DNA of 64,000 bases from Raja brachyura (lineage: Eukaryota). The position numbers were made by a program, and so were the translations under genes. Numbering within the stretch: the first letter of the stretch is position 1; each line of letters begins with the position of its first letter. The notes beneath the pieces were generated by a model. That model made no database searches and was not told where the DNA came from. It saw nothing but the letters and a program-made list of their open reading frames with translations. Location of the stretch: assembly GCA_963514005.1 (NCBI GenBank), contig OY740802.1, forward strand, positions 12,090,001 through 12,154,000, read 5' to 3'. This document shows, piece by piece, positions 5,717-61,120 of this stretch.

Positions 5717-6160
5717 TGTACCTTCTATATCTCCCGCTTCCTTCTCCCTTGACTCGGTCTGAAGAAGGTCCTAAACATCACCTATTTTTTTTTCTCCAGA
5801 GGTGGTGTCTGACCCGTTTAGTTACTTCAGCTTTTTGAGTCTTTCTTCGGTGTTAACCAGCACCTGCAGTTCCTTCCTGCACATTTTGCCTGCTCTACTG
5901 CAAAATCTCCTCAAGGTATGCCTACCTTGAAGAAATTCTCCTCCCTCCGATGAGAGTTCGGCAACACCCCTCGCTCTCTGCACCCCCTCTGTAATCTGTA
6001 CCTTCTATATCTCTCATCCCCTGACTCCCCTGACTCCTCTCATTCCCTGTCCCCTGACTCGCAGTCTGATGAAGGTTTCGACCCGAAACATCACCTATTC
6101 CTTTTCTCCGGAGATGCTGCCTGACCCACTGAGTTACTCCAGCATTTTGTGTCTGTCTTT
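5717..6160 (+). mobile_element. Internally deleted Penelope-like element with two direct pLTRs
   Basis: Two tandem units both start TGTACCTTCTATATCTC and contain CTGA(A/T)GA..AAACATCACCTATT. Degenerate TSD AGTTGATTATGCCA / AGTTCATTATAACA. Confidence 0.65.
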
Positions 6161-11962: not shown

Positions 11963-13249
11963 AAGAAGCATTTATAGTACATCCCTATTAATCTTTGATA
12001 AGGTGAAGGTGAGCAGGTGAACGCAGCACTAACAACAAACTCCCTGTGAGGGGCAAACAAGATTTTAATTAGGAAGTTGCATCCCAATTTCAACCGGCAA
12101 GTCTCCAAATGAGCATCGCATTCTGGGTGGCCTGGCCCAGCACACTATCAACGTACCAAATTCAGAAGTGCATTTAGGATGTTACTGTGACCAGAGGCTG
12201 TGGGTCATATTTCTTGAATTGTACAATTACTCATAAAAAACTATTGACATTCAGTTACAGGCTGCATATTAGCACAGTGCAATATTTTCCCAATTTCTAG
12301 GCAGCAGCATTTTCAAGATCGCAGCCAACTCTCATCTTAGTGTTGTTTGGTTTAGTTTAGTTTAGTTTAGTTTAGTGAAGTTTTGAGGGTTTATGGAGTC
12401 AAATTGTTTCACACAGTTTGTTTTTACAAATTATATTTATAGAACTGATTTTCTATTTGTGAATTTATGATGATTTTTAAAAAATCTTCAGGGATTCATC
12501 CCATTCCTTTCACCATTTTTAAAGATGTGTGAGCGTTGATGCATCGAGCGTTGATGTTAAAAAACAAAGTCCGGTGTTCAACCTTCATTTTTCATCATCA
12601 CCACTGTACACACCAACTCTGCACTGGTCTGGAGCACCGGCAGTGGGCACATTTCTCTGGATATATAGGCAATTTAAAACAAACCCTCAACTACTGACAG
12701 CAAAGACTTGTGTTTGTTAGCTGTCTGGGAAAGGTTTACATGGTTACAGTGTATTGGCACTAACAGTTTGAATGGAGCTTAAAGTCAAGTAAGTTTTACC
12801 ACTATCACATTGTTTCAATCATTGTTCGTCTCCAGAAAGAGTGAGACTAATTCAATACGCCAGAAACCCATATTGCATCCTGACCTTGGGTGTTGCCTCT
12901 GTGGAGTTTGCAACTTCTCGCTGGGTTTCCTCCAGGTACTCTGGTTTCCTCCCACATCCTACAGACATGGGGGTTATGTTGGTTAACTGGCCTTTGTAAA
13001 TTGCCTCCTGTGAGTAGGGACAAGATGTGACAAGTGGAATAACAGAACTAGTGGGAATAGTGCCTGTTTACATGGTGTGTGCCTTTATATCACTTCATAA
13101 TGCTTACAACCATTGAAAAAAAGATTGCAGAAAACTCTTTGCACTTGTTTTGATGTGTGTGAGCACAGGTTCAGATAATCATCACTGCAATGTAAAAACA
13201 AAGCATGCACATTTTCAAAAGTGAGAGAAGAACATCAATCCCGAAGAAT

Positions 13250-13565
13250 GACACAAAATGCTGAAGTAATTCACTGGGTCAAGCAGCATCTTTGGAGAAA
13301 AGGAATATGTAACGTTTTGAGTCGAGACCCTTCTTCAGACTGAGGGAAAGGGGAGTGGGAGACTAGAGGTATGAGAAGGTACAAAGAACAAATGAATGGA
13401 AGGAATGAAAAGAACAAATCAAAGCTAGCAATGATGATCAGAAAAGATGGAGCCCACAATGGTCCATTGCTAATGTTTATGTTGCTTAACATTAAAATGT
13501 AAAACTAGACTGATTTTTTGTGTCTATCTTCGGTGTAAACCAGCATCTGCAGTTCCTTCCTGCAC
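13250..13565. mobile_element. Penelope pLTR/3'UTR fragments
   Basis: Minus-strand pLTR with GACCCTTCTTCAGACTGA and 3'UTR, followed by a plus-strand pLTR end. Confidence 0.7.
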
Positions 13566-22444: not shown

Positions 22445-23270
22445 ATGAAATTGAATAGAATACTTTATAGTCACATGTGACCAGGCACAGTGAAATTCTT
22501 TGCTTGCATACCCAAGGTCACCATATAGAGTAGTCACTGCAAATAGTCACCACATATGGAGTTGACAAAGTCAAGAGTCAAGAGTGGTTTATTGTCATAT
22601 GTCCCGGACGGGACAATGAAATTCTTACTTGCTGCAGCACAACAGAAGATGTGAATATGTAAACATTGTATATAATGGGGAAAAAAAATAAATGGTTCAA
22701 TAAATAAAAAATATGGTGCAAATAACAAATAATAATATAGTCTTGTGCAGTTCAGAGCTCATAGCTTATTCGTTGTGTTTAATAGCCTGATGGCTGTGGG
22801 GAAGAAGCTGCTCCTGAACCTGGACGTTACAAAGTTACAAAGTTACAAAGTACCCCTGCCAGCTCCTCCTTTGTTCCCCCCCCCCCTCCCCATCCTGGTG
22901 GTCTCCCACGCTCCATGTCCACTGTTCTTCCCCCTCCCTCACAGCAGTCCCTCCCGCGCCCGGTCCTCCATTGTTGTTCCCCCTCATGGTGGATCCCCCC
23001 GCGCCCTCATTGACCGCCGACCGCGGGTCGACCCACGAGGCCCCACCGCTACCGCCGAGGCTCCACCGCTGTCGCCGAGGCAGACTTCGCCACCCGGCTT
23101 CTCCACGGCCTCCCAGATTGAATGATTGATACTTTATTGTCACGTGTACTTGGTACAGTGAGATTCCTTGTTTGCATACAGTACAAGTATGCAAAGGACA
23201 AAGAGTAAAGGGCAGCAACAAAGTTACAAAAGTATTCAATATAGTCCTTTTTCCTTCTCTCCTCCCCTGT
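22445..23270 (-). mobile_element. Cluster of Rex1-tailed elements: GC-rich non-coding element, nested Rex1 3' end (about 22570-22830), and a second copy
   Basis: Three TTTAT(A/T)GTCA..hairpin..GAAATTC tails at about 22465, 22590 and 23133; shared ACAAAGTTACAAA motif. Confidence 0.6.
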
Positions 23271-24153
23271 AACTCAGCAGGTCAGGCAGCATCTCTGGAG
23301 AGAAGGAATGGGTGATGTTTCGGGCCAAGAACCTTCTTCAGACTGATATCAGGGGAGGGTGTGGGACAAAGATAGAATGTAGTCAGAGACAGTAAGGCTG
23401 CTGGGAGAACTGGGAAGGGGGAGGGGATGGTGAGGGAAAGCAAGGGCTATCTGAAGTCAGAGAAGTCAATGTTCATACCGCTGGGTTGTAAGTTACCCAA
23501 GCGAAATATGAGGCACTGTTCCTCCAATTAGCGGTGGGCCTCACTCTGACATTGGAGGAGGCCCAGGACAGAAAGGTCAGATTGGGAATGTGAGGGGGAG
23601 TTCAAGTGATGAGCCACCGGGAGGTAGGTTAAGATGGACTGAGCGGAGGTGTTCAGCGAAACGATCGCCGAGCCTGCGCTTGGTCTCGCTGATGTAGAGA
23701 AGTTGACACTTGGAACAGCGGATACAGTAGATAAGATGTGAGGAGGTGCAAGTGAACCTCTGCCTCACCTGGAAAGACTGTTTGGGTCCTTGGATGGAAT
23801 CGAGGGGGGGAGGTAAAAGGACAAGTGTTGCATCTCCTGCGGTTGCAGGGGAAAGTACTTGGGGAGGGGGTGGTTTGGCTGGGAAGGGACAAGTTGACCA
23901 GGGGGTTTTGGAGGGAACGATCTCTGTGGAAAGCAGAAAGGGGTGGAGATGGGAAGATGTGCCAAGTAGTGGGATCCCGCTGGAGGCGGCGAAAATATTG
24001 GAGGATTATATGCTGCATGTGACAGCTGGTAGGGTGGAAGGTGAGGACAAGGGGGCTATGTCCTTGTTATGAATGGGGAGAGGGGGAGCAAGAGCGGAGC
24101 TGCAGGATATCGAGGAGACTCTAGTGAGAGCCTCATCTATAATGGAAGAGGGG
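23271..24153 (-). mobile_element. Penelope-like element, 3' part (RT C-terminus/linker, GIY-YIG endonuclease, 3' pLTR)
   Basis: RQRFTCTSSHLIYCIRCSKCQLLYISETKRRLGDRFAEHLRSV (GIY-YIG); Cys-rich linker PCNRRRCNTCP; frameshifted; pLTR at about 23271-23350. Confidence 0.9.
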
Positions 24154-24255
24154 AAACATAGAAACATAGAAACATAGAAAATAGGTGCAGGAGTAGGCCA
24201 TTCGGCCCTTCGAGCCTGCACCGCCATTCAATGTGATCATGGCTGATCATCCAAC

Positions 24256-27200
24256 TCAGTATCCCGTACCTGCCTTCTCTCCATACCCCCTGATCCCTTT
24301 AGCCACAAGTGCCACATCTAACGCCCTCTTAAATATAGCCAATGAACTGGCCTCAACTACCTTCTGTGGCAGAGAATTCCAGAGACTCACCACTCTCTGT
24401 GTAAAGAATGTTTTCCTCATTTCGGTCCTAAAGGAATTCCCCCTTATCCTTAGACTGTGACCCCTTGTTCTGGACTCCCCCAACATCGGGAACAATCTTC
24501 CAGCATCTAGCTTGTCCAACCCCTTAAGAATTTTGTAGGTTTCTATAAGATCCCCCCTCAATCTTCTAAATTCCATCGAGTACAAACCGAGTCTATCCAA
24601 TCTTTCCTCATATGAAAGTCCTGACATCCCAGGAATCAGTCTGGTGAATCTTCTCTGTACCCCCTCTATGGCAAGGATGTCTTTCCTCAGATTTGGAGAC
24701 CAAAACTGTACGCAGTACTCCAGGTGTGGCCTCACCAAAACCCTGTACAACTGCAGTAGAACCTCCCTGCTCCTATACTCAAATCCTTTCGCTATGAATG
24801 CTAACATACCATTTGCTTTCTTCACTGCCTGCTGCACCTGCATGCCTACTTTCAATGACTGGTGTACCATGACACCCAGGTCTCGTTGCATCTCCCCCTT
24901 ACCTAATCTGCCACCATTCAGATAATAGTCTACCCTCATGTTTTTGCCACCAAAGTGGATAACCTCACATTTATCCACATTGTACTGCATCTGCCATGCA
25001 TCTGCCCATTCACTCAGCCTATCCAAATCACCCTGCAGCCTCCAAGCATCCTCCTCACACCTAACTATACCCCCCAGCTTGGTATCATCTGCAAATTTGG
25101 AGATGTTGCATTGAATTCCCTCGTCCAAATCATTAATATATATTGTAAATAGCTGGGGTCCCAGCACTGAGCCTTGCGGCACCCCACTAGTCACTGCCTG
25201 CCATTCTGAAAAGGACCCGTTTACTCCTACCCTTTGCCTCCTGTCTGCTAGCCAGTTCTCTATCCACATCAATACTGAACCCCCAATACCGTGTGCTTTA
25301 AGTTTGTATGCTAATCTCTTATGCGGGACCTTGTCGAAAGCCTTCTGAAAGTCTAGATATAACACATCCACTGGTTCTCCCTTATCCACTCTACTAGTTA
25401 CATCCTCGAAAAATTCTATCAGATTTGTCAGACATGATTTACCTTTCGTAAATCCATGCTGACTTTGTCCAATGATTTCACCACTTTCCAAATGCGCTGC
25501 TATCCCATCTTTAATAACTGACTCTAGCAGTTTCCCCACTACCGATGTTAGACTAACTGGTCTGTAATTCCCCGCTTTCTCTCTCCCTCCTTTTTTAAAA
25601 AGTGGGGTTACATTAGCTACCCTCCAATCCTCAGGAACTACTCCAGAATCTAAGGAATTTTGAAAAATTATCACTAATGCATCCACTATTTCTGTGGCTA
25701 CCTCCTTGAGTACTCTGGGATGCAGACTATCTGGCCCTGGGGATTTATCGGCCTTCAATCCGTTCAATTTACCCAACACCACCTCCCGGCTAACCTGGAT
25801 TTCACTCAGTTCCTCCATCTTATTTGACCCCCGTTCCACTGCTATTTCCGGCAGATTATTTATGTCTTCCTTAGTGAAGACAGAACCAAAGTAGTTATTC
25901 AATTGGTCTGCCATGTCCTTGTTCCCCATGATCAATTCACCTGTTTCTGACTGCAAGGGACCAACATTTGTTTTAACTAGTCTCTTTCTCTTTACATATC
26001 TATAAAAACTTTTGCAGTCAGTTTTTATGTTCCCTGCCAGTTTCCTTTCATAATCTATTTTCCCTTTCCTAATTAAGCCCTTTGTCCTCCTCTGCTGGAT
26101 TCTGAATTTCTCCCAGTCCTCCGGTAGGCTGCTTTTTCTGGCAAATTTGTATGCCTCATCTTTTGTTTTTATACTATCCCTGATTTCCCTTGTTATCCAT
26201 GGATGCACCACCTTCCCCGATTTATTCTTTTGCCAAACTGGTATGAACAACTTTTGTACTTCATCCATGCAGTCTTTAAATACCTTCCATTGCACATCCA
26301 CTGTCAACCCTTTAAGAATCACCTGCCAGTCTATCTTGGCCAATTCACATCTCATACCTTCAAAGTTACCTTTGTTCAAGTTCAGAACCCTTGTTTCTGA
26401 CTTAATTTTGTCACTCTCCATCCTAATGAAGAACTCAACCATATTATGGTCACTCTTGCCCAAGGGGCCACGCACAACAAGACTGCTAACTAACCCTTCC
26501 TCATTACTCAATACCCAGTCTAGAATAGCCTGCTCTCTCGTTGGTTCCTCCACATGTTGGTTGAGAAAACTATCCCGCATACATTCCAGGAAATCCTCTT
26601 CCTCAGCACCCCTGCCAATTTGATTCACCCAATCTACATGCAGATTGAAGTCACCCATTATAACCGTGTTACCCTTGTTGCACGCATTTCTAATTTCCTG
26701 TTTGATGCCATCCCCAACTCCAATACTACTGTTAGGTGGCCTGTACACAGTTCCCACTAGCGTTTTCTGCCCCTTAGAGTTTCGCAGCTCTACCCATATC
26801 GATTCCACATCCTCCACGCTAATGTCCTTCCTTTCTATTGCATTTATCTCCTCTCTCACCAGCAACGCTACCCCACCTCCTTTTCCTTTTCGTCTATCCC
26901 TCCTGAATATTGAATATCCCTGGATGTTCAGCTCCCAGCCTTGGTCATCCTGGAGCCAAGTCTCCGTGATTCCAACTATAGCATAGTCATTAATCGCTAT
27001 CTGCACCTTCAACTCATCCACCTTATTACGAATGCTCCTCGCATTGAGACACAAAGCCTTCAGGCTTGTTTTTACAACACTCTTACTCCTTATACAATTA
27101 TGTTGACAAGTGGCCCCTTTCACATCGATCCCTATTACACTTGGCCATACTCTCCTATCCCTTTGTGAGCTTTCTTCCCCGTTAATTCTGGGGTCATTAA

Positions 27201-27330
27201 CCATCGCTTTACTCTCTTTCCCTCTAACTCCGTCCTCGACTATCCCATTTGATACCCCACCCCCCTTATTCAGTTTAAAACCATCCGTGTAGCAGTGGCA
27301 AACCTGCCGGCCAGAATGCTGGTCCCCCAC
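24256..27330 (-). CDS. CR1 ORF2: APE endonuclease plus reverse transcriptase (1024 aa, uninterrupted)
   Basis: APE motifs LNARSI, ITETWL, GGGVALLV, VYRPP, GDFN, LDWV, SDH; RT motifs NYRPVSLTS, DFQKAFDKV, GVPQGSVLGP, FADD. True start codon uncertain. Confidence 0.93.
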   Translation of the reverse strand: MGDQHSGRQVCHCYTDGFKLNKGGGVSNGIVEDGVRGKESKAMVNDPRINGEESSQRDRRVWPSVIGIDVKGATCQHNCIRSKSVVKTSLKALCLNARSIRNKVDELKVQIAINDYAIVGITETWLQDDQGWELNIQGYSIFRRDRRKGKGGGVALLVREEINAIERKDISVEDVESIWVELRNSKGQKTLVGTVYRPPNSSIGVGDGIKQEIRNACNKGNTVIMGDFNLHVDWVNQIGRGAEEEDFLECMRDSFLNQHVEEPTREQAILDWVLSNEEGLVSSLVVRGPLGKSDHNMVEFFIRMESDKIKSETRVLNLNKGNFEGMRCELAKIDWQVILKGLTVDVQWKVFKDCMDEVQKLFIPVWQKNKSGKVVHPWITREIRDSIKTKDEAYKFARKSSLPEDWEKFRIQQRRTKGLIRKGKIDYERKLAGNIKTDCKSFYRYVKRKRLVKTNVGPLQSETGELIMGNKDMADQLNNYFGSVFTKEDINNLPEIAVERGSNKMEELSEIQVSREVVLGKLNGLKADKSPGPDSLHPRVLKEVATEIVDALVIIFQNSLDSGVVPEDWRVANVTPLFKKGGREKAGNYRPVSLTSVVGKLLESVIKDGIAAHLESGEIIGQSQHGFTKGKSCLTNLIEFFEDVTSRVDKGEPVDVLYLDFQKAFDKVPHKRLAYKLKAHGIGGSVLMWIENWLADRRQRVGVNGSFSEWQAVTSGVPQGSVLGPQLFTIYINDLDEGIQCNISKFADDTKLGGIVRCEEDAWRLQGDLDRLSEWADAWQMQYNVDKCEVIHFGGKNMRVDYYLNGGRLGKGEMQRDLGVMVHQSLKVGMQVQQAVKKANGMLAFIAKGFEYRSREVLLQLYRVLVRPHLEYCVQFWSPNLRKDILAIEGVQRRFTRLIPGMSGLSYEERLDRLGLYSMEFRRLRGDLIETYKILKGLDKLDAGRLFPMLGESRTRGHSLRIRGNSFRTEMRKTFFTQRVVSLWNSLPQKVVEASSLAIFKRALDVALVAKGIRGYGEKAGTGY

Positions 27331-28100
27331 CTGTTAAGATGCAATCCGTCCCTTTTGTACAGTTCCCCCTTACTATAAAAAAAATCCTAGTGATCTAAGA
27401 ATCTAAATCCCTGCCCCCTGCACCAGTTCCTCAGCCACACATTCAGGTCCCATATCTCCCTGTTCCTGCTCTCGCCAGCACGAGGAACTGGAAGCAAACC
27501 GGAGATAACAACCCTGGAAGTCCTGCTTTTCAGCATTTTTCCGAGCTCTCTGAAGTCCCGCTGCAAAAAATTCATCTCCTTCTTTCCAACATCATTTGTG
27601 CCAACATGCACGACCACTTCCGGCTGGTCACCTTCGCCCTTGAGGATTGTCTGCACTCTGTCCGTAACATCCTGGATCCTGGCACCAGGAAGGCAGCACA
27701 CCATCCTGGAATCCCGTCTGTTGCCGCAAAAACCCCTGTCCGTACCTCTCACAATGGAGTCTCCAACTACAATGGCGTTGCCCGACTTTGGCCTCTGTGG
27801 GTTTGGCTCATCAGCCCTTTTTGTTTGGCAAGCCAGTCCGCCGCTCAGTGGGATACCGTCTTCTGTCCCGGCAGCTTCCACGTGGGTGAACCTGTTCACA
27901 AGAGGTACAACACCCGGGGACCTTTGCATCCCATGTTTTCCTCCCTTTCTCACCGTCACCCACCTTCTCTCTTCTAGTGCCTTGGGTGTAACAATCTCAC
28001 TGAAGGACTTGTCGAGAAACGACTCAGTTTCTCGAATGAACCTGAGGTCATCCACTTGTTTCTCCAGTTCCCCAACACGGTCCTTCAGGAGCTGTACCTG
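27270..28100 (-). pseudogene. CR1 ORF1 with SGNH/GDSL esterase domain; N-terminus missing and premature stop
   Basis: Coiled coil LLKDRVGELEKQVDDL; GDSIVRG, PGA and HVGTND blocks. TAG at 27387-27389 is followed in frame by DFFYSKGELYKRDGLHLNRWGTSILAGRFATATRMVLN* ending at about 27270. Confidence 0.88.
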
Positions 28101-28320
28101 GAAGGCCTGTTTCCTAAAGAATGAGGATATCTCCAATGCCCTACTATGGAACACCTCATCCTGGGCACAGATGCAGCGTAGATGGAGGAATTGGGAGTAT
28201 GGTGGGAAGAAATGTAGACAAGATAGTTATAGGAGTCAGTAGGTTTGTAGTAGATATTGGTTAATAGTCTGTTTCCTGCGTTGGAAACAATAGGGAGATG
28301 TCGGAGATGGTCTGAGTAAT
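28100..28320 (-). mobile_element. Penelope-like element, upstream part (RT C-terminal region)
   Basis: Minus strand reads GNRLLTNIYYKPTDSYNYL..PYSQFLHLRCICAQDEVFHSRALEISSFFRKQAF, contiguous with PSSIIDEALTRV at 24153. Confidence 0.85.
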
Positions 28321-32526: not shown

Positions 32527-33019
32527 CTCTCCATGAATAGAGACAATCCCAAACAGAAGTCAAAGATCTCTAACCACAATCATGCACCATTACACTTGTA
32601 TTTGTATTTTTTTGTTGTATTTGTCTTGGCTGTATGTCTACTGTCTAATCCGTAAGGTTAGTGTACACAAGGATTTTCATTGTATATGACAAGAGACTAA
32701 ACTAATCTAACCTCAAAGCAAGGTAAATGTTCCAAATTTGTGCATCACGATGACACACTCTTAAAGCAGAACTTAAGGACTTGAACTCTGTTTAACATTA
32801 CATGAAACTTGCTCATCTTTGTTGGTTTCAGCAGGTTGTGTGAGCTGTACTAGGATATCCTTAAAGGGTTGTCCAATTCTGCATCCATTTGTTACTTTTG
32901 GTAAAGTGTATCATTGACAAGGGAGAGTAGAAGGTACTAGCAAACGGTCTTCTAAACATTATTTGCGACAGGATAATCTACAGTATACAGTTAATAAATA
33001 TTTAACAGGTGAAAGTACT

Positions 33020-33346
33020 TCGCTTGGGCAGCTTACATCCCAGTGGTATGATAATTGGTTTCTCTCACTTCAGGTAGCCGCGGCATTCCCTCTCTCTCTA
33101 TCCCTCCCCCACCCAAGTCGCACTTGCTTCTCATTTTTACTCTTCAAACAGCTATCAATGGCATGTTTCCTTTATCATCGTTACTTTTTTGCATATCTTT
33201 CATTCATTGTTCTTTATCTCTCCACATCATCATATATACCTCTCGTTTCCCTTATCCCTAACCAGTCTGAAGAAGGGTCTCGACCCGAAACGTCACCCAT
33301 TGCTTCTCTCAAGCGATGCTGCCCTGTCTAGCTTTTTGTGTCTACC
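33020..33346 (+). mobile_element. Penelope-like 3' end with pLTR
   Basis: End of GIY-YIG ORF (LGSLHPSGM), pyrimidine-rich 3'UTR and pLTR. Confidence 0.75.
33262..33300 (+). ncRNA. Minimal type I hammerhead ribozyme-like motif in a Penelope pLTR
   Basis: GT-CTGAAGA-A-GGGTCTCGACCC-GAAA-CGTC-AC: conserved core, stem II and palindromic ACGT stem III. Stem I has only 2 bp in cis. Confidence 0.5.
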
Positions 33347-33375
33347 CTGGGAACACTAGAATTCTTCTCTCCTAG

Positions 33376-38566: not shown

Positions 38567-38985
38567 AAAAGGGGACAAAAGAAGTGTTTTATACCACCAA
38601 AACATTTGAGGGTAATGTCATGCTAAGTTTTGTAATTGGTTGATCTTTCGTTGTGTCTGATTGTATTTGTATAATTGTAGAAGACAAATATTAATCATAT
38701 TGTGTATCTATCATGATGAGGAGTATATTGTACTCAAATCGGTGTGGCATCTACCAGCTGTTCGTATTTCATTTGTATTGAATATCACATCAATTTTCAC
38801 TTTTGTATCAAGAGTTGTAAATGATGCTCAGAGCTGTACAAGCGTATCGCTCTTAATAATTCTGTGTATCATCAAGATGATGATAGTGATGAGGAGACGT
38901 TTATTTATTAATGTACATGTTTGTTGACCAGCCTGCCCCCGTTGTGTATGGTCCATTTATAACACCAAGCATCTCTTTGAGTTGT

Positions 38986-39160
38986 AGATAGACACAAAAT
39001 GCTGGAGTAACTCAGTGGGACAGGCAGCATCTCTGGAGAGAAGGAATGGGTGACATCACTCATTCCGTTTCTCCAGAGATGCTGCCTGTCCCGCTGAATT
39101 ACTCCAGCATTTTGTGTCCATCTTTGGTTTAAACCAGCATCTGCAGTTCCTTCCTACACA
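38986..39160. mobile_element. Fold-back pLTR mini-element
   Basis: About 65-bp inverted arms meeting at GTGACATCAC; ends CCAGCATCTGCAGTTCCTTCCTACACA. Confidence 0.8.
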
Positions 39161-40250: not shown

Positions 40251-40747
40251 CAATAGACAATAGAAGTCTGATGAAGAGTTTCGGCCTGAAACGTTGCCTA
40301 TTTCCTTCGCTCCATAGATGCTGCCTCACCCGCTGAGGTTATCCAGCACTTTTGTCTACCAATAGACAATAGGTGCAGGAGTAGCACCGCCATTCAATGT
40401 GATCATGGCTGATCATCCCCAATCAGTACCCCGTTCCTGCCTTCTCCCCATATCCCTGATTCCGCTATCTTTAAGATCTCTCTAGCTCTCTCTTGAAAGT
40501 ATCCAGAGAACCTGCCTCTACCGCCCTCTGAGGCAGAGAATTCCACAGACTCATAACTCTCTGTGAGAAAAAGTGTTTCCTCGTCTCCTTTCTAAACGGC
40601 TTACCCCTTATTCGTAAACTGTGGCCCCTGGTTCTGGACTCCCCCAACATCAGGAGCATGTTTCCTGCCCCTAGCGTGTGCAAACCCTTAATAATCTTAT
40701 ATGTTTCAATAAGATCCCCTCTCGTCCTTCTAAACTCCAGAGTATAA
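40251..40747 (-). mobile_element. CR1 3' fragment with a pLTR unit (40264-40359) inserted in its tail repeat
   Basis: ORF 40471-40755 is a CR1 C-terminus; CAATAGACAATAG lies on both sides of the pLTR unit. Confidence 0.85.
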
Positions 40748-41309: not shown

Positions 41310-41520
41310 ATGCAAAAAGCTGGAGTAACTCAGCGGGTCAGGCAGCATCTCTGGAGAAAAGGAATAGGTGATGTTTGGGTTGTGACCCTCCTTCAGATCC
41401 GACCCGAAATGCCACCTATTCCTTTTCTCCAGATATGTTGACTGACCCGCTGAGTTAGTCCAACTTTTTTTTTTGTCTATCTTCGGTTTAAACCAGCATC
41501 TGCAGTTCCTTCCTACACAT
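41310..41520. mobile_element. Fold-back pLTR mini-element
   Basis: Inverted pLTR arms joined at CTTCAGATCCGACCCGAAA. Confidence 0.8.
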
Positions 41521-42964
41521 TTTGTCAGCCGCCAAGGATTAGTTGAAGAAAGTCAAAGTGTGCCCTGGGCTGAAATGGAAGGGTGCATAACGTTGAAGTG
41601 ATGCTAACTTGGATAAAGGATGGGACAGAGATTTGGAGGAGTGTTGCTGTGGAATGATTTGAAAACATAGACAACAATTTTAAAATAGCTCAACCATACG
41701 TGTATCCAACATAACATAGGGAGATGTGTGAACAGACTCATTGTGAACTCCAACACAAATATTGGAAGACACCTTGTTTAAAGCAGGTGTAACATGAAAG
41801 ACTGGCCAATACCATTTTGCACTAGTTAAGCATAGAGGCGATAAAGGCACAGATGAGAGTTTCATAGAATTCCAGTTGAGGCATGGCCAGAGATGAGAAA
41901 TATCACAGGAATGAAAGCAGGATTTGTAGAGGCTATGGGATTGGAATAAAGACAGGAAATGCTGGAGATTCTCAGTTATTGAGGCAGCATCTGTGGAGAC
42001 AGAAACAGAGTCAACGCTTCAGTTTAATGATCTTTCATCAGAAATGGAAAGGCGAGGGATGAGAGAGTGCAGGGAAGAAGGGGAATGGTGGGGAGAATAC
42101 ATGGGATGGGTGACAAGACGTAGACAGGACAGATTGTCTGATTGACAATACAGCTCACCCCCTCCATGACACACTGGTCAACCTGAGGAGCACCTTCAGC
42201 CACAGACTGGTTGCACCGCACCTCCTCCCCCTTCTGTCATGGGGTAGATTGACTCCACTCCCCCCACACCCACCCCATCCCCAATCTTTGCACATCTCCA
42301 ATCCTGGACTTTCCACTCGTCACTTTAATTTCATGTTTCATTTATCCTGATGTGTTTGATGACTGTTGGCAGACAAATTTCCCGCCTGGGATAAATAAAG
42401 TTCTATCGTATCGTGTCGTATTGGGGTGCCACTTTGGAGCTGCCAGTCCCCCCGTGACAGTTCCGCACGCTCTCCGAAACCCCAAACATGCGTGGGCTGG
42501 CGGGGTTACTGTAAGGTTATTGGTGGCGGTAAATAGCCTCAGCTATGTATGTGGCAGGTAGACGTTGGAGGGGATTAATGAGAAGTTAGCAGTAGAGATG
42601 ATGAGACTTTTACATTCTGTGTGAGAGCAGGAACACATCATCAATGGACTGGCCAAAGAGGTGACGGAGGGGGCTCGAGTATCAAATGAGATTTGGGATG
42701 TTTCACATGCCCTCTCTTTGCAGGCAAGGCTGTGATTGACTTGAACTTCTTCCAGTCTGGTGTGATTCGTCACATTACGTGGCCTGCGCAGGAAGGAACT
42801 GCAGATACTGGTTTGAACCGAAGATAGACACAAAAGGCTGGAGCAACTCAACAGGACAGGCAGCATCTCTGGAGAGAAGGATAGGCTGAGCATTTTTGTG
42901 TCTATCTTGGGTAAAAGCTTTGCAGGACGGTCTCATTCATTCACTCCTCAGGGCAACACTGAGC

Positions 42965-43112
42965 TTTCAATTGCCTGTCACTTTAATTCTCCATCCCACT
43001 CCCACTCCGAGCTCCCTGTCTTTGGCCTCCGACAAAGCCCAATGTAAGCTGGAAGAACAATACCTCATCTTCCAACCAGGTACATTACAGTCTTCCAGAC
43101 TCAACAATGAAT
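42965..43112 (+). mobile_element. Penelope GIY-YIG C-terminal fragment
   Basis: AQCKLEEQYLIFQPGTLQSSRLN resembles the end of the element at 23480-23600. Confidence 0.6.
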
Positions 43113-55654: not shown

Positions 55655-56974
55655 GAATAATGACCACCAGTGTTTCACACATTTCTAGGCGCAATTCACT
55701 GCGGTGCATTTGATGTTTATCTAGCATTAAATGCGAATCGAACAGCCGCTTCCTGTGCATTGCGACCATTTCTGTATTTACTGACAGACTTGCCTGTCAA
55801 AATTGCAACCTGTAGTACTGTATGTGCTCATAATTCTCAAATAAAAGAATTAACCCCTGCAGCAGATTAGACAAGTGTGAGTTAAGAAATCCCACATTAC
55901 ATTGTCTCAGTTTTTATTGCTCAGCGTTGTATACACAGCATTCCATCAGATTCCCACTTTGAAGGCTTTCAACTCTAGGATATTTGATGTGGTCTGTTCC
56001 CTGCTTTTGTAGATGGAGCCCTCATCCATTCCTTCTCTGTTTCCCACAGTTCTGCTCTTGCTCTCCATTCCCCCAGACAGAACAAGTATAGAGATCCCCA
56101 GCCCCTCATCTATGCAGCAAAACCTTAATTTTGGACATTTCCCCACTTTCAACATAATCCTACCATTGATCACATCTTCCCATCGGCACCCATTTCCATC
56201 TTCTGTAGAAAGTCCATTCTCTCTGAAAGTCCTCAGTTCATAGGTTCATAAGTTCTAGGAGCATAATTAGGCCATTCACCCCATCAAGGCTATTCCGCCA
56301 TTCAATCATGGCTGATGTATCTTTCCCTCTCAACCCTATTCTCCTGCCTTCTCCCCATAACCCCTAATGAGATGAGGAAGGATGTGATGGTGTTGGAGAG
56401 GGTCCAGAGAAGGTTTATGTGAAAGATTCCAGCAAGGATGAGCGTTTGAAAGCAGTGCGCCTGTACTCGCTGGAGTTTAGAAGGTTGAGGGGAAACCTCA
56501 TTGAAACTCACCAAATAGTGAAAGGCCTGGATAGAGTAAATGTGGAGAGGATGTTTCCATGAGTGGGAGAGTCTAGGACCAGACATCCCATAAAGGAGAG
56601 AACTTCTGCGAATTAGTGCTCCCTCAGTAGGCTCCATGAGAAGTCTAATGTACAAGCACTTCCGTGAAAAATACCACAAAAATCAGGCTGTAACTTGAAG
56701 AATCACATGTTCATGCAATTGCTGTATATAACTGGTAACTATTAATATTTATTTGCAGATTTTAGGCCAATATAAATAATAGCAGAATCTTTAATTTGTT
56801 CAAACACATTATAAATACATAAACATTACAACTTCCGAATGTTTTAAGTGCATGATGTACTGTGTAGGTGGTGCACATTGGAAATATTAGTCCGGGTTCC
56901 CCAGACATAGGACGTGCATGCATGCATGCATGCAGAAACTACCATGCACAATGTCAGACCGCATGCAATGCTTG

Positions 56975-57177: not shown

Positions 57178-57334
57178 AGATGACACTGGAAAAATTGTAT
57201 TCTTTCCACATTCAGGCTGTTGCCTCTGTTTTTCCTTTGTTAATAGTTCACTCTCTTCCTCTTCACAAAGTTGTTCAAGGGCAGGATTAGCTTTTAGCTC
57301 AGATCTTGCTTTGCAGTTCTCAATCCCCTCAGCT

Positions 57335-57423
57335 GAAGAAGGGCCTCGACCCGAAACGTCACCCATTCCTTCTCTCCAGAGAGGCTGCCTGTCCCGCTGA
57401 GTTACTCCAGCATTTTGTGTCTA
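57335..57423 (+). mobile_element. Single pLTR unit with hammerhead-like core and 9-bp TSD
   Basis: CCCTCAGCT at 57326-57334 and 57424-57432; CTGAAGA-AGGGCCTCGACCC-GAAACGTC at 57333-57360. Confidence 0.8.
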
Positions 57424-58170
57424 CCCTCAGCTCAGAGCACTGCACCAGATGTTTCTGAAAAGCCGTTATCAAAGCCTCAGCAAGCAAAAAAAGCTAACCT
57501 TTGAAACGACTTTTGCCAATTTCTGTGAACTCTTTGGATGAAAAATTGCAATAAGAAGAAGGGGATTAATTGGAAATAAACATAAATTAGGGGGCAACCG
57601 AGATTAACTGGGCTAAAGTCCGGCAGACAGGGCTCCCTTAAAGAAAATCATCAGCATCTTTCTGCACAGAAATCCCACGATCCTGCCTGCCACTGAAGGC
57701 TTAGCTTATCTAAAACAGTCACTGTTTAAAATAGACTGAAAAATAGGATGTCATGTAATTTTTGAAACATCTGTAGTTTATCTCAAACATTTCCAGTTTG
57801 CAAGATGTTTCTGCTATGCTGGAACATCTATGTTCCGATTAGGGCTGACCAGATGTCGAGCTGATGCATGGTTTACAGGCTGTGCTGTGGCACTGGTTTT
57901 CCCTGCCTGTGTCTCTCCCCTCTTTCTCTGGCAATCACTCATTCCACAGCAAGGATTCCCAGGCTCAGGCAGCTCAGCAGCAGCATGCACCAAGTGGGAT
58001 CTCTCCCTATGTTGTGTGTCAGGTGTTTTCCCAGGAAGTCAACAGAAACACCAGCAAAGGGTGTGTATAATTTTGCTTAATAAAATTGTTAAATGCAATG
58101 CAAAATTCAATTCAATTTTAGAATGTTTTTTTTTAATCCACAGAGTGTTGTGAATGAGAGGAAGAAAGCG

Positions 58171-58596: not shown

Positions 58597-59431
58597 TGCT
58601 GTGAGTGACACTGGTCCCAGGGTCAAGCTAGCCTCTGATACTGTCTGTATGGAGTCTGCATGCTCCTCCTGTAACTATACAAATTTCACCAATGTCCTTT
58701 TGTTTTCTTCCACGTTCCAAAGATGTGTGGGCTGGTAAGGTAACTGTCCATTGTAGTATCGATAAGTGGTAGAATCTGGGACAAGTCCATAGGGAGTTGA
58801 TCCCCCGCTGATCCCATCTTATTTTGGACATTAAAATTGAAATGGTGACATTTTCTCTTTCTGCAGATGCTTCCTGACCAGCTGATCTTTCTCCTAGGGG
58901 AAATAAAAGTGGGATTCGAAACCGAAAATTGCTCAATAGCTCAGCAGATCAGGCAGCATCTGCGGAAAGAGAAAGAGTCACCATTTCATTTTTTTGATGT
59001 CCAAAATTAAGTGGGATCAGTGTGGGGATTAATTAAATTGAGTACTTGATGGTTTATCCATCTGAAGAAGGGTCTTGACCCGAAATGTCACCCATTCCTT
59101 CTCTCCAGAGGTATTGCCTGGCCCAGTGAATTACTCCAGCACTTTGTGTCTATCTTCGATTTAAACCAGCATATGCAGTACTTTCCGACTTGATTGTTGG
59201 TGTGGGCTTAGCGTGCCAGGCGTATTATTATATGACAGTATAGATTATTTTCTGGAAATAGCCTTATCTTTATGTAATACACAAGCCAATTCCTGTTTAA
59301 AGCATAAAACAGTAGGGTATTAGAAGTAGTAGCCGGAGTAGGTGATTTGGCCCTCTTGCTCACGGCACCTTTCCACACAAAATGTGGCTGATTTTTATCT
59401 GCATTTATTACATCTTCTGGATACCCTACAT

Positions 59432-60391: not shown

Positions 60392-60554
60392 NNNNNNNNN
60401 NNNNNNNNNNNNNNNNNNNNNNNNNNNNNNNNNNNNNNNNNNNNNNNNNNNNNNNNNNNNNNNNNNNNNNNNNNNNNNNNNNNNNNNNNNNNNNNNNNNN
60501 NNNNNNNNNNNNNNNNNNNNNNNNNNNNNNNNNNNNNNNNNNNNNNNNNNNNNN
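60392..60554. other. Assembly gap (163 N)
   Basis: Run of N. Confidence 1.
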
Positions 60555-61120
60555 CGGGACAGAATAACTCAACCGGACAGGCAGCATCTCTGAATAGAAG
60601 GAATAGGTGATGTATTGGATTGTCATCCTTCTTGAGGTCTGAAGAAGGGTCTCGACCTGAAATATCACCCATTCCATCTATCCAGAGATGCTGCCTGTCC
60701 AGTTGAGTTATTCCAGCATTTTATGTCTATCTTCAGTTTAAACCAGCATTTGCAGTTCCTTCCTACAATACATATGTAGATTCTTGACTAGTACAGGTGC
60801 AAGGGCTTATGGGGAGAAGGCAGGAAAATTGAGTTAGAAGGGAGAGATAGATCAGCCATGATTGAATGGCAGAGTAAATGATGGGCTGAATGGCCTAATT
60901 CTGCTCCTATCACTTATGACCTTATGGCTGAGCCTAACTGTTGGGTAGAGTAATCCAAAGATTCACTGTCCTTTAGGGAGAGGAACTCTTTCCCACCTCA
61001 GCCCTAAGGCTTATTTTGGGAAAAGGACACAAAGTGCTGTTGTAACCCAGCAGGTCAGGCAGCATCTCTGAAGATCATGGATAGGTAACATATTGGGTCA
61101 GGTTCCCTTTTTAGACTGCT

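Follow-up and report, generated by a model that had tools for sequence, protein, structure and literature searches.

A 64-kb stretch of Raja brachyura DNA, referred to here as the window, contains a genuine minimal type I hammerhead motif at 33263..33296 (+). It is part of the pLTR of a Penelope-like element (PLE), where it follows the ORF in sense orientation, and the same family has left 45 pLTR pieces in the window, with tails, inverted pairs and 5' ends gathered 0-4 nt before CUGA. We consider it probable that this is the pLTR min-HHR of a Neptune-like Penelope element, which would be cut as a dimer after C17 in the master RNA, likely with the help of a protein, and that the genomic copies derive from uncut RNA and are likely inert.

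The hammerhead motif and its class

The numbering used here follows Cervera and de la Pena 2014 (PMC4209133). On the plus strand, the 5' strand of stem I (33265-33266) is followed by the core CUGAAGA (33267-33273), an extra A at 33274, stem II (33275-33278 with 33283-33286, loop 33279-33282), GAAA (33287-33290), the palindromic stem III ACGU (33290-33293), C17 at 33294 and the 3' strand of stem I (33295-33296), which places the predicted cut at 33294/33295. The letters at 33267-33294, namely CUGAAGA, A, stem II, GAAA, CGU and C, bear out an earlier sequence-only reading that had put a hammerhead core at 33262..33300 (+). That reading had drawn stem II as GGGTC TC GACCC, a form of 5 bp that we ruled out because its 2-nt loop cannot close; stem II is instead GGGU/ACCC, 4 bp with a 4-nt loop. 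Stem I, described earlier as 2-3 bp, is indeed very short, and in register it amounted to 2 bp (U-A, G-C) in 5/5 copies checked, with a U.G in one. Stem I pairs beyond an internal loop vary from copy to copy.

We scanned the 64-kb window with the core pattern CTGANGAN{10,22}GAAANNTH and obtained seven matches, at 6066+, 23314-23341-, 33267+, 40268+, 57333+, 59062+ and 60639+, against a mean of 0.60 and a maximum of 4 in 100 shuffles. The seven matches are not independent events since all are copies of one repeat family; a chance origin of the motif was rejected. They include the minus-strand motif that had been noted near 23315-23345 and the recurrences listed at 6066, 40268, 57333, 59062 and 60639; the remaining entry of that list, 13311 (-), has G12 changed to A. 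No hammerhead family was among the seven matches of an Rfam covariance-model scan at E up to 1. Pattern scans of metagenomes and of viral contigs gave no match. Eight metagenome loci from a third pattern scan had only the 21-nt pattern in common and were set aside as chance.

Several features had been called unusual: the zero-loop ACGT, the extra A and the very short stem I. All belong to the published min-HHR consensus, and they are better regarded as the signature of the class since they match the architecture described in PMC4209133. There, the consensus is CUGANGAH; one nucleotide between 9 and 10.1 stays unpaired, G10.1 pairs with C11.1, and 15.2-16.2 is a palindrome with zero loop; helix I is often 3 bp, and 2-bp helices occur in Culex, D. 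virilis and Oikopleura. In the present motif A33274 is the unpaired nucleotide, G10.1-C11.1 and helix II are present, and ACGU at 33290-33293 supplies the palindromic 15.2-16.2 with no loop 3. Judged by their letters, the core, extra nucleotide, G10.1-C11.1 and zero-loop palindrome thus agree with that consensus, and the pyrimidine-rich 5' flank, the pLTR location and the existence of solo copies are further common ground with the PLE min-HHRs of PMC4209133, for which genomes with thousands of solo copies and low activity even as dimers are reported. Two features differ from the examples in the parts of that paper covered here: stem II has only 4 bp, and stem I, whose 2 bp put it among the weakest of the published 2-5 bp helices, is U-A and G-C and so weaker than the 2-bp examples, which are all G-C.

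The min-HHR class has been known since 2014 (PMC4209133), and the present family appears to add another member to it. Its occurrence in metazoan PLE pLTRs was also covered by Lunse et al., as cited in the review PMC6765202, and the role of PLE hammerheads is called unclear in the relevant part of PMC8557442. Cartilaginous fish are absent from the Fig. S3 alignment rows of PMC4209133 covered here, and a literature search on Penelope, shark and hammerhead ribozyme found no report on actual sharks. A preprint (bioRxiv 10.64898/2026.07.22.740005) describes, in the part covered here, hammerhead retrozymes together with PLEs in one chondrichthyan genome, and its supplements may list the present family. 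Non-LTR retrozymes carry a type I hammerhead in short PLE-derived repeats (PMC7229834). In that description they are tandem units with complete hammerheads, whereas the pieces here are dispersed, solo or inverted, and ~95-130 nt long; a single partial tandem was found, with a period of 306 bp and both motifs damaged.

A probably Neptune-like element and its copies

The 33267 copy, at 33015..33350 (+), is a 5'-truncated PLE consisting of the ORF end, a 190-nt pyrimidine-rich pLTR part, the motif and a 3' part with a 13-nt deletion and no tail. It retains the last ~20 ORF codons (33015-33074) and the stop (33075-33077), with the motif 190 nt 3' of the stop; in a second copy the distance is 106 nt. 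The motif had been placed just 3' of a GIY-YIG ORF, and the position 3' of the ORF stands, but in the 33267 copy too little of the ORF is left to include GIY-YIG, which is seen in the 23341 (-) copy. That copy, the 3' part of a broken PLE at 23270..24180 (-), encodes across breaks a C-x4-C-x2-C linker and GIY-YIG, followed by a stop (23449-23447) and a pLTR whose hammerhead, with its C3 at 23341, has decayed. Its product is 59% identical to a Chiloscyllium RT and GIY-YIG protein, and the Pfam GIY-YIG match has E 0.13 for the window piece and 2.5e-4 for the relative P0001. By tblastn, the PLE ORF matches shark and ray relatives, with ray proteins matching to the last codon. A piece of the RT thumb of the same PLE lies at 28080..28290 (-), split off by an inserted LINE of ~3.9 kb. 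This LINE (~24160-28085, -) lies within the PLE ORF, holds a 1025-codon open stretch with endonuclease and RT as well as an ORF1 with an SGNH/GDSL-like domain, and looks young. Decayed PLE ORF fragments at 42961-43029 (+) and 55997-56230 (+) have no intact pLTR next to them.

The element is likely Neptune-like, judged by the linker described by Craig et al. 2021 (PMC8557442), with the RT present in the window only as the thumb fragment. As portrayed in that paper, the Neptune clade has a CX2-5CxxC linker before a C-terminal GIY-YIG, as here, and also shares 5' truncation, adjacent inverted copies and a tail of 30-40 bp at one end; a linker motif is found in Nematis elements as well.

We searched for pLTR pieces with an nhmmer profile seeded from window copies, using the reversed window as a control. 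The search returned 45 pieces in 64 kb, spanning 4,462 bases, and none in the reversed window. The measured density is one per ~1.4 kb; the earlier estimates were more than 30 pieces and about one per 2 kb. All core letters are kept in 7/24 pieces that span the motif. Only at 33267 and 60639 does the core come with four paired positions in stem II and an unbroken stem III palindrome, and of these two only 33267 also keeps G10.1-C11.1; it is the sole copy among the 24 identical to the window majority. It has no intact partner nearby and is likely inert.

At 60562..60763 an inverted pair of short copies has a plus arm with the hot-spot start described below, a kept core (60639) and a tail; the minus arm enters a gap, a run of 163 N at 60392-60554 that cuts the inverted arm of this copy. 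The solo short copy at 57333..57426 (+) has an intact core, one broken stem II pair and an apparent target-site duplication. Another, at 40265..40358 (+), comes from a different subfamily in which the site reads GUU and stems I and II each contain U.G; the 13-bp repeat on its flanks resembles a microsatellite. A short copy with core and tail at 59060..59186 (+) has lost the stem III palindrome through CpG decay, and the core is broken, G12 to A, in a piece with an upstream tract at 13241..13414 (-). The partial tandem at 5717..6160 (+) holds two pLTRs ~306 bp apart, the first hammerhead with a 7-nt deletion in stem II and the second (6066) with a 1-nt deletion and a broken palindrome; it may be an element with an internal deletion or a unit of the retrozyme type. 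Its spacer contains a hairpin (5904-5937) and a donor-like AG/GT, and a tblastn search with 121 PLE relatives, some of which may stop short of the N terminus, gave no match to the spacer at 5875-6040, a candidate ORF start.

An older, divergent pLTR subfamily is present at 41949-42042 (-) and 58926-58990 (-), with a different stem II and a different sequence after the cut. The inverted pair at 38985-39155 folds back exactly on the ACGT palindrome of stem III. Rfam miRNA matches at 39009-39100 and 41325-41459 turned out to be inverted pLTR pairs, and no tRNA genes were found in the window. In all, there are 17 tail pieces between 1127 and 60763 and ten inverted pairs. A search for target-site duplications in 24 singles and 11 rows of pairs told little about most of them; its candidates were 40264, 57332, 31398 and the 1053/1043 pair. 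The tails lie on the plus strand in 15/17 cases (p 0.002, post hoc), as do 6/7 core-pattern matches, while the pLTR pieces taken together number 22 + and 23 - and the copies of a SINE-like repeat are divided 9 / 10. The skew of the tails might arise if copies in one orientation were purged within a gene, or from an insertion bias linked to replication.

Ends of the copies and a possible route of copying

Short copies share a 5'-end hot spot at 33262..33268 (+). We counted 5' ends in 39 pieces, leaving out the six long copies of the 45 that have the upstream pyrimidine tract. Eighteen of the 39 start 0-4 nt before C3 of CUGA, against 14.7% expected in the -4..0 interval from simulated uniform starts, and none (0/39) starts at +28, the end of the cut product. 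Five further 5' ends were called at +23..+26; two of them form an inverted pair with its fold at the ACGT palindrome, and two look like weak or older alignments. The upstream flanks of the hot-spot copies have no common sequence except for the inverted partners. The initiator consensus is YYANWYY. The hot spot fits it, with a predicted start A at 33264, and such a pattern occurs at 1.2% of positions; its pyrimidine tract and CAG also resemble a 3' splice site. Because many short copies begin before the motif and not at the predicted cut site, their templates were likely uncut RNA, and since the hot spot matches an initiator-like sequence, the copies are likely run-off cDNAs of such RNA.

Contigs of public runs were aligned to 33000-33360, giving 93,089 contigs for X1, 97,560 for X5 and 114,487 for X11 (all DNA-like) and 8,017 for X18, which we guess to be RNA. 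At ~100,000 contigs per DNA run, these form a large natural record of the family. In all four runs the top loose ends before the aligned part were at 33263, 33264 and 33265 (2367, 1279 and 1253 in X1). Loose-end flanks at 33264-33265 have no consensus (agreement 0.31-0.34), and those at 33263 are pyrimidine-rich and include pLTRs of other subfamilies. Immediately downstream of the cut site the reference copy carries changes of its own, which make this mapping nearly blind to starts at 33295. Depth in X1 was 10.8 million over the motif vs 0.77 million just upstream, a difference that is confounded by subfamily divergence and is no copy count. The motif is covered in contigs of X18, whose RNA label is a guess and whose contigs are strandless. 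Rare head-to-tail duplications of the hammerhead, with a period of 35-39 nt (for example 33301 back to 33263), occur in the DNA of X1, X5 and X11 and would be natural covalent dimers.

The 3' ends lie mainly near +87..+104 and +118..+125 from C3, and in 10/10 inverted pairs (11 rows, one plus arm occurring twice) the plus arm runs to the tail end at +122..+125. A similar arrangement is known from the Anolis Poseidon element PAc (Frangieh et al. 2024, PMC11167929), in which two internal RT start sites bound the tail. In the part of that work covered here, the PAc hammerhead cleaves only with protein, cleavage is unnecessary for insertion and no RNA-seq ends fall at the cut site. The present family resembles PAc in the two RT start sites bounding the tail, in copies compatible with an uncut template and in a hammerhead near the RNA 5' end. 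It differs in that the PAc start codon lies inside the hammerhead, whereas no long frame begins there in our copies, and in its Neptune-type cysteine linker; protein-assisted cleavage, established for PAc, is proposed for the present element.

From these ends we infer the following route. The RNA of the element would begin three nucleotides upstream of the core, with the A of the initiator-like sequence. RT would start inside the RNA at two sites ~30 nt apart, near +90 to +100 and at +122 to +125 from C3, as the 3' ends and the PAc example suggest, and would run off the 5' end, leaving many hammerhead-headed copies of ~95 and ~128 nt made on an uncut template. The two pLTR motifs of a full transcript are predicted to pair via ACGU and to be cut after C17, likely with protein; such cleavage, if any, would be a slow or protein-gated side step that copying does not need. 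In an RNA that starts at the 33264-type A, stem I could have no more than 2-3 bp. We propose, tentatively and with slightly less than even confidence, that the hammerhead forms the first 35 nt of the element RNA, that the start three bases before the core limits stem I to this length and so spares the 5' copy from cutting, and that run-off reverse transcription floods the genome with micro-copies. If so, the copies are a fossil map of the start site, of both RT start sites and of the uncut state of the template. If the 5' ends of copies do lie ahead of the ribozyme instead of at the cut site, the 5' end of the retrotransposed RNA is not a product of cleavage, and what was seen for PAc in vitro would then hold for living germ lines and for a second clade of PLEs. 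Penelope of D. virilis argues against this start-site reading. Its start is not at the hammerhead edge: a 75-bp intron begins 46 bp downstream of that start (PMC2377424), and the end of this intron abuts the hammerhead at helix I (PMC4209133). Among the parts of the literature on PLE pLTR transcription starts covered here, we found no report of 5' ends clustering at the hammerhead edge.

Conservation, folding and alternative explanations

For column statistics, CpG columns were excluded and six pieces (60636-, 45886+, 18918-, 42042-, 48915- and 15014-) were dropped as rearranged, old or partial. Mismatches amounted to 27/269 (10.0%) in the core vs 117/1090 (10.7%) in the distal flank (p 0.83). 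The core was lower only than the whole flank (10.0% vs 15.4%, p 0.018, with cells that are not independent). The corresponding counts were 24/204 in stem II, 22/62 in loop II and 158/718 in the near 3' flank. Columns that vary at subfamily level, with an alternative letter in at least 20% of copies, numbered 0/17 in the non-CpG core and stem II, 2/2 in loop II and 8/59 in the flank; the contrast of 0/17 vs 8/59 gives p 0.19. None of the four stem II pairs (0/4) had two-sided changes in 22 aligned window copies, all changes being one-sided, and the observed covariation values were reached by 484-495 of 500 shuffles. Most differences between copies look like decay after insertion. As the core is no more conserved than the distal flank and stem II has no compensatory change, the activity of the motif is only putative. 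No variants within 33262-33301 were found among the 40 rows listed (57 further), a result that we do not count as evidence of conservation.

In predicted folds, stem II has a probability of 0.95-0.98 in the first 30-34 nt and of 0.00-0.09 in longer contexts, where it is mostly displaced by sequence 3' of the cut site. Nearest-neighbour folding gave -6.1 kcal/mol for the double hammerhead vs -14.4 for two monomers and -21.5 for the best dimer. The folding models thus appear to favour inactive forms, although they ignore the tertiary contacts of the core and were run on sequences of this family alone.

These results bear on whether the motif is a relic, that is, a descendant of a PLE hammerhead that no longer cuts and whose letters are kept as an internal promoter or as a protein-binding sequence at the RNA 5' end. 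The lack of compensatory changes, the equal conservation of the distal flank and the 0 pieces that start at the cut site are all as a relic would have them. Stem I consists of U-A and G-C only, GGGU can pair with a second ACCC just past the cut site, and the core can pair with downstream pyrimidines. ACGT also stands at ~+27..+30 from the predicted start, and the Penelope downstream promoter element RGACGTGY, as given in PMC2377424, holds ACGT, but the match is weak at 5/8 letters. On the other hand, the majority across several subfamilies retains every core letter along with the extra nucleotide, G10.1-C11.1 and the palindrome while loop II varies, and weakness in vitro does not set the motif apart: published min-HHRs are also weak (PMC4209133) and PAc needs protein (PMC11167929), according to the parts of those papers covered here. 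We regard a relic as unlikely next to our preferred reading of a protein-helped ribozyme in the master RNA.

The hot spot itself might have another origin that is compatible with ribozyme identity. It could mark a point of template jumping or a 3' splice site, made up of the pyrimidine tract, CAG and UCUGA, with the hammerhead heading an exon as in D. virilis, where the intron terminates at helix I (PMC4209133). A pyrimidine tract precedes the motif in 6/6 long copies, with CAG in four, a donor-like AG/GT overlies the ORF stop at 33073-33075, and the rare head-to-tail duplications in the DNA runs (33301 to 33263) count in favour as well. Against this, short copies have no upstream exon in common, in keeping with the low agreement of the loose ends at 33264-33265; short copies also often retain the acceptor A and G, and GT..AG ends were found in 0/15 joints among the matches listed (301 further). 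This origin seems to us somewhat less likely even than the relic. Far more improbable is activity of the dispersed copies within host transcripts, where they would cleave in trans as dimers and so affect host RNA. Their copy number is very high, the motif is covered in the probable RNA run, and core-pattern matches and tails favour one strand, as if one orientation had been purged. Yet the core is kept in only 7/24 spanning pieces, most of which lack part of stem I, II or III, and a 4-bp intermolecular stem would presumably demand a high local concentration. The coverage comes from strandless contigs with a guessed label, and the skew in strand is a post hoc finding in a single window, whose pLTR pieces as a whole are almost evenly split.

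A further segment of the pLTR, +48 to +78 from C3 (for example 57381-57411), is conserved like the hammerhead core and lies just upstream of the first inferred RT start; it is a candidate protein-binding hairpin.
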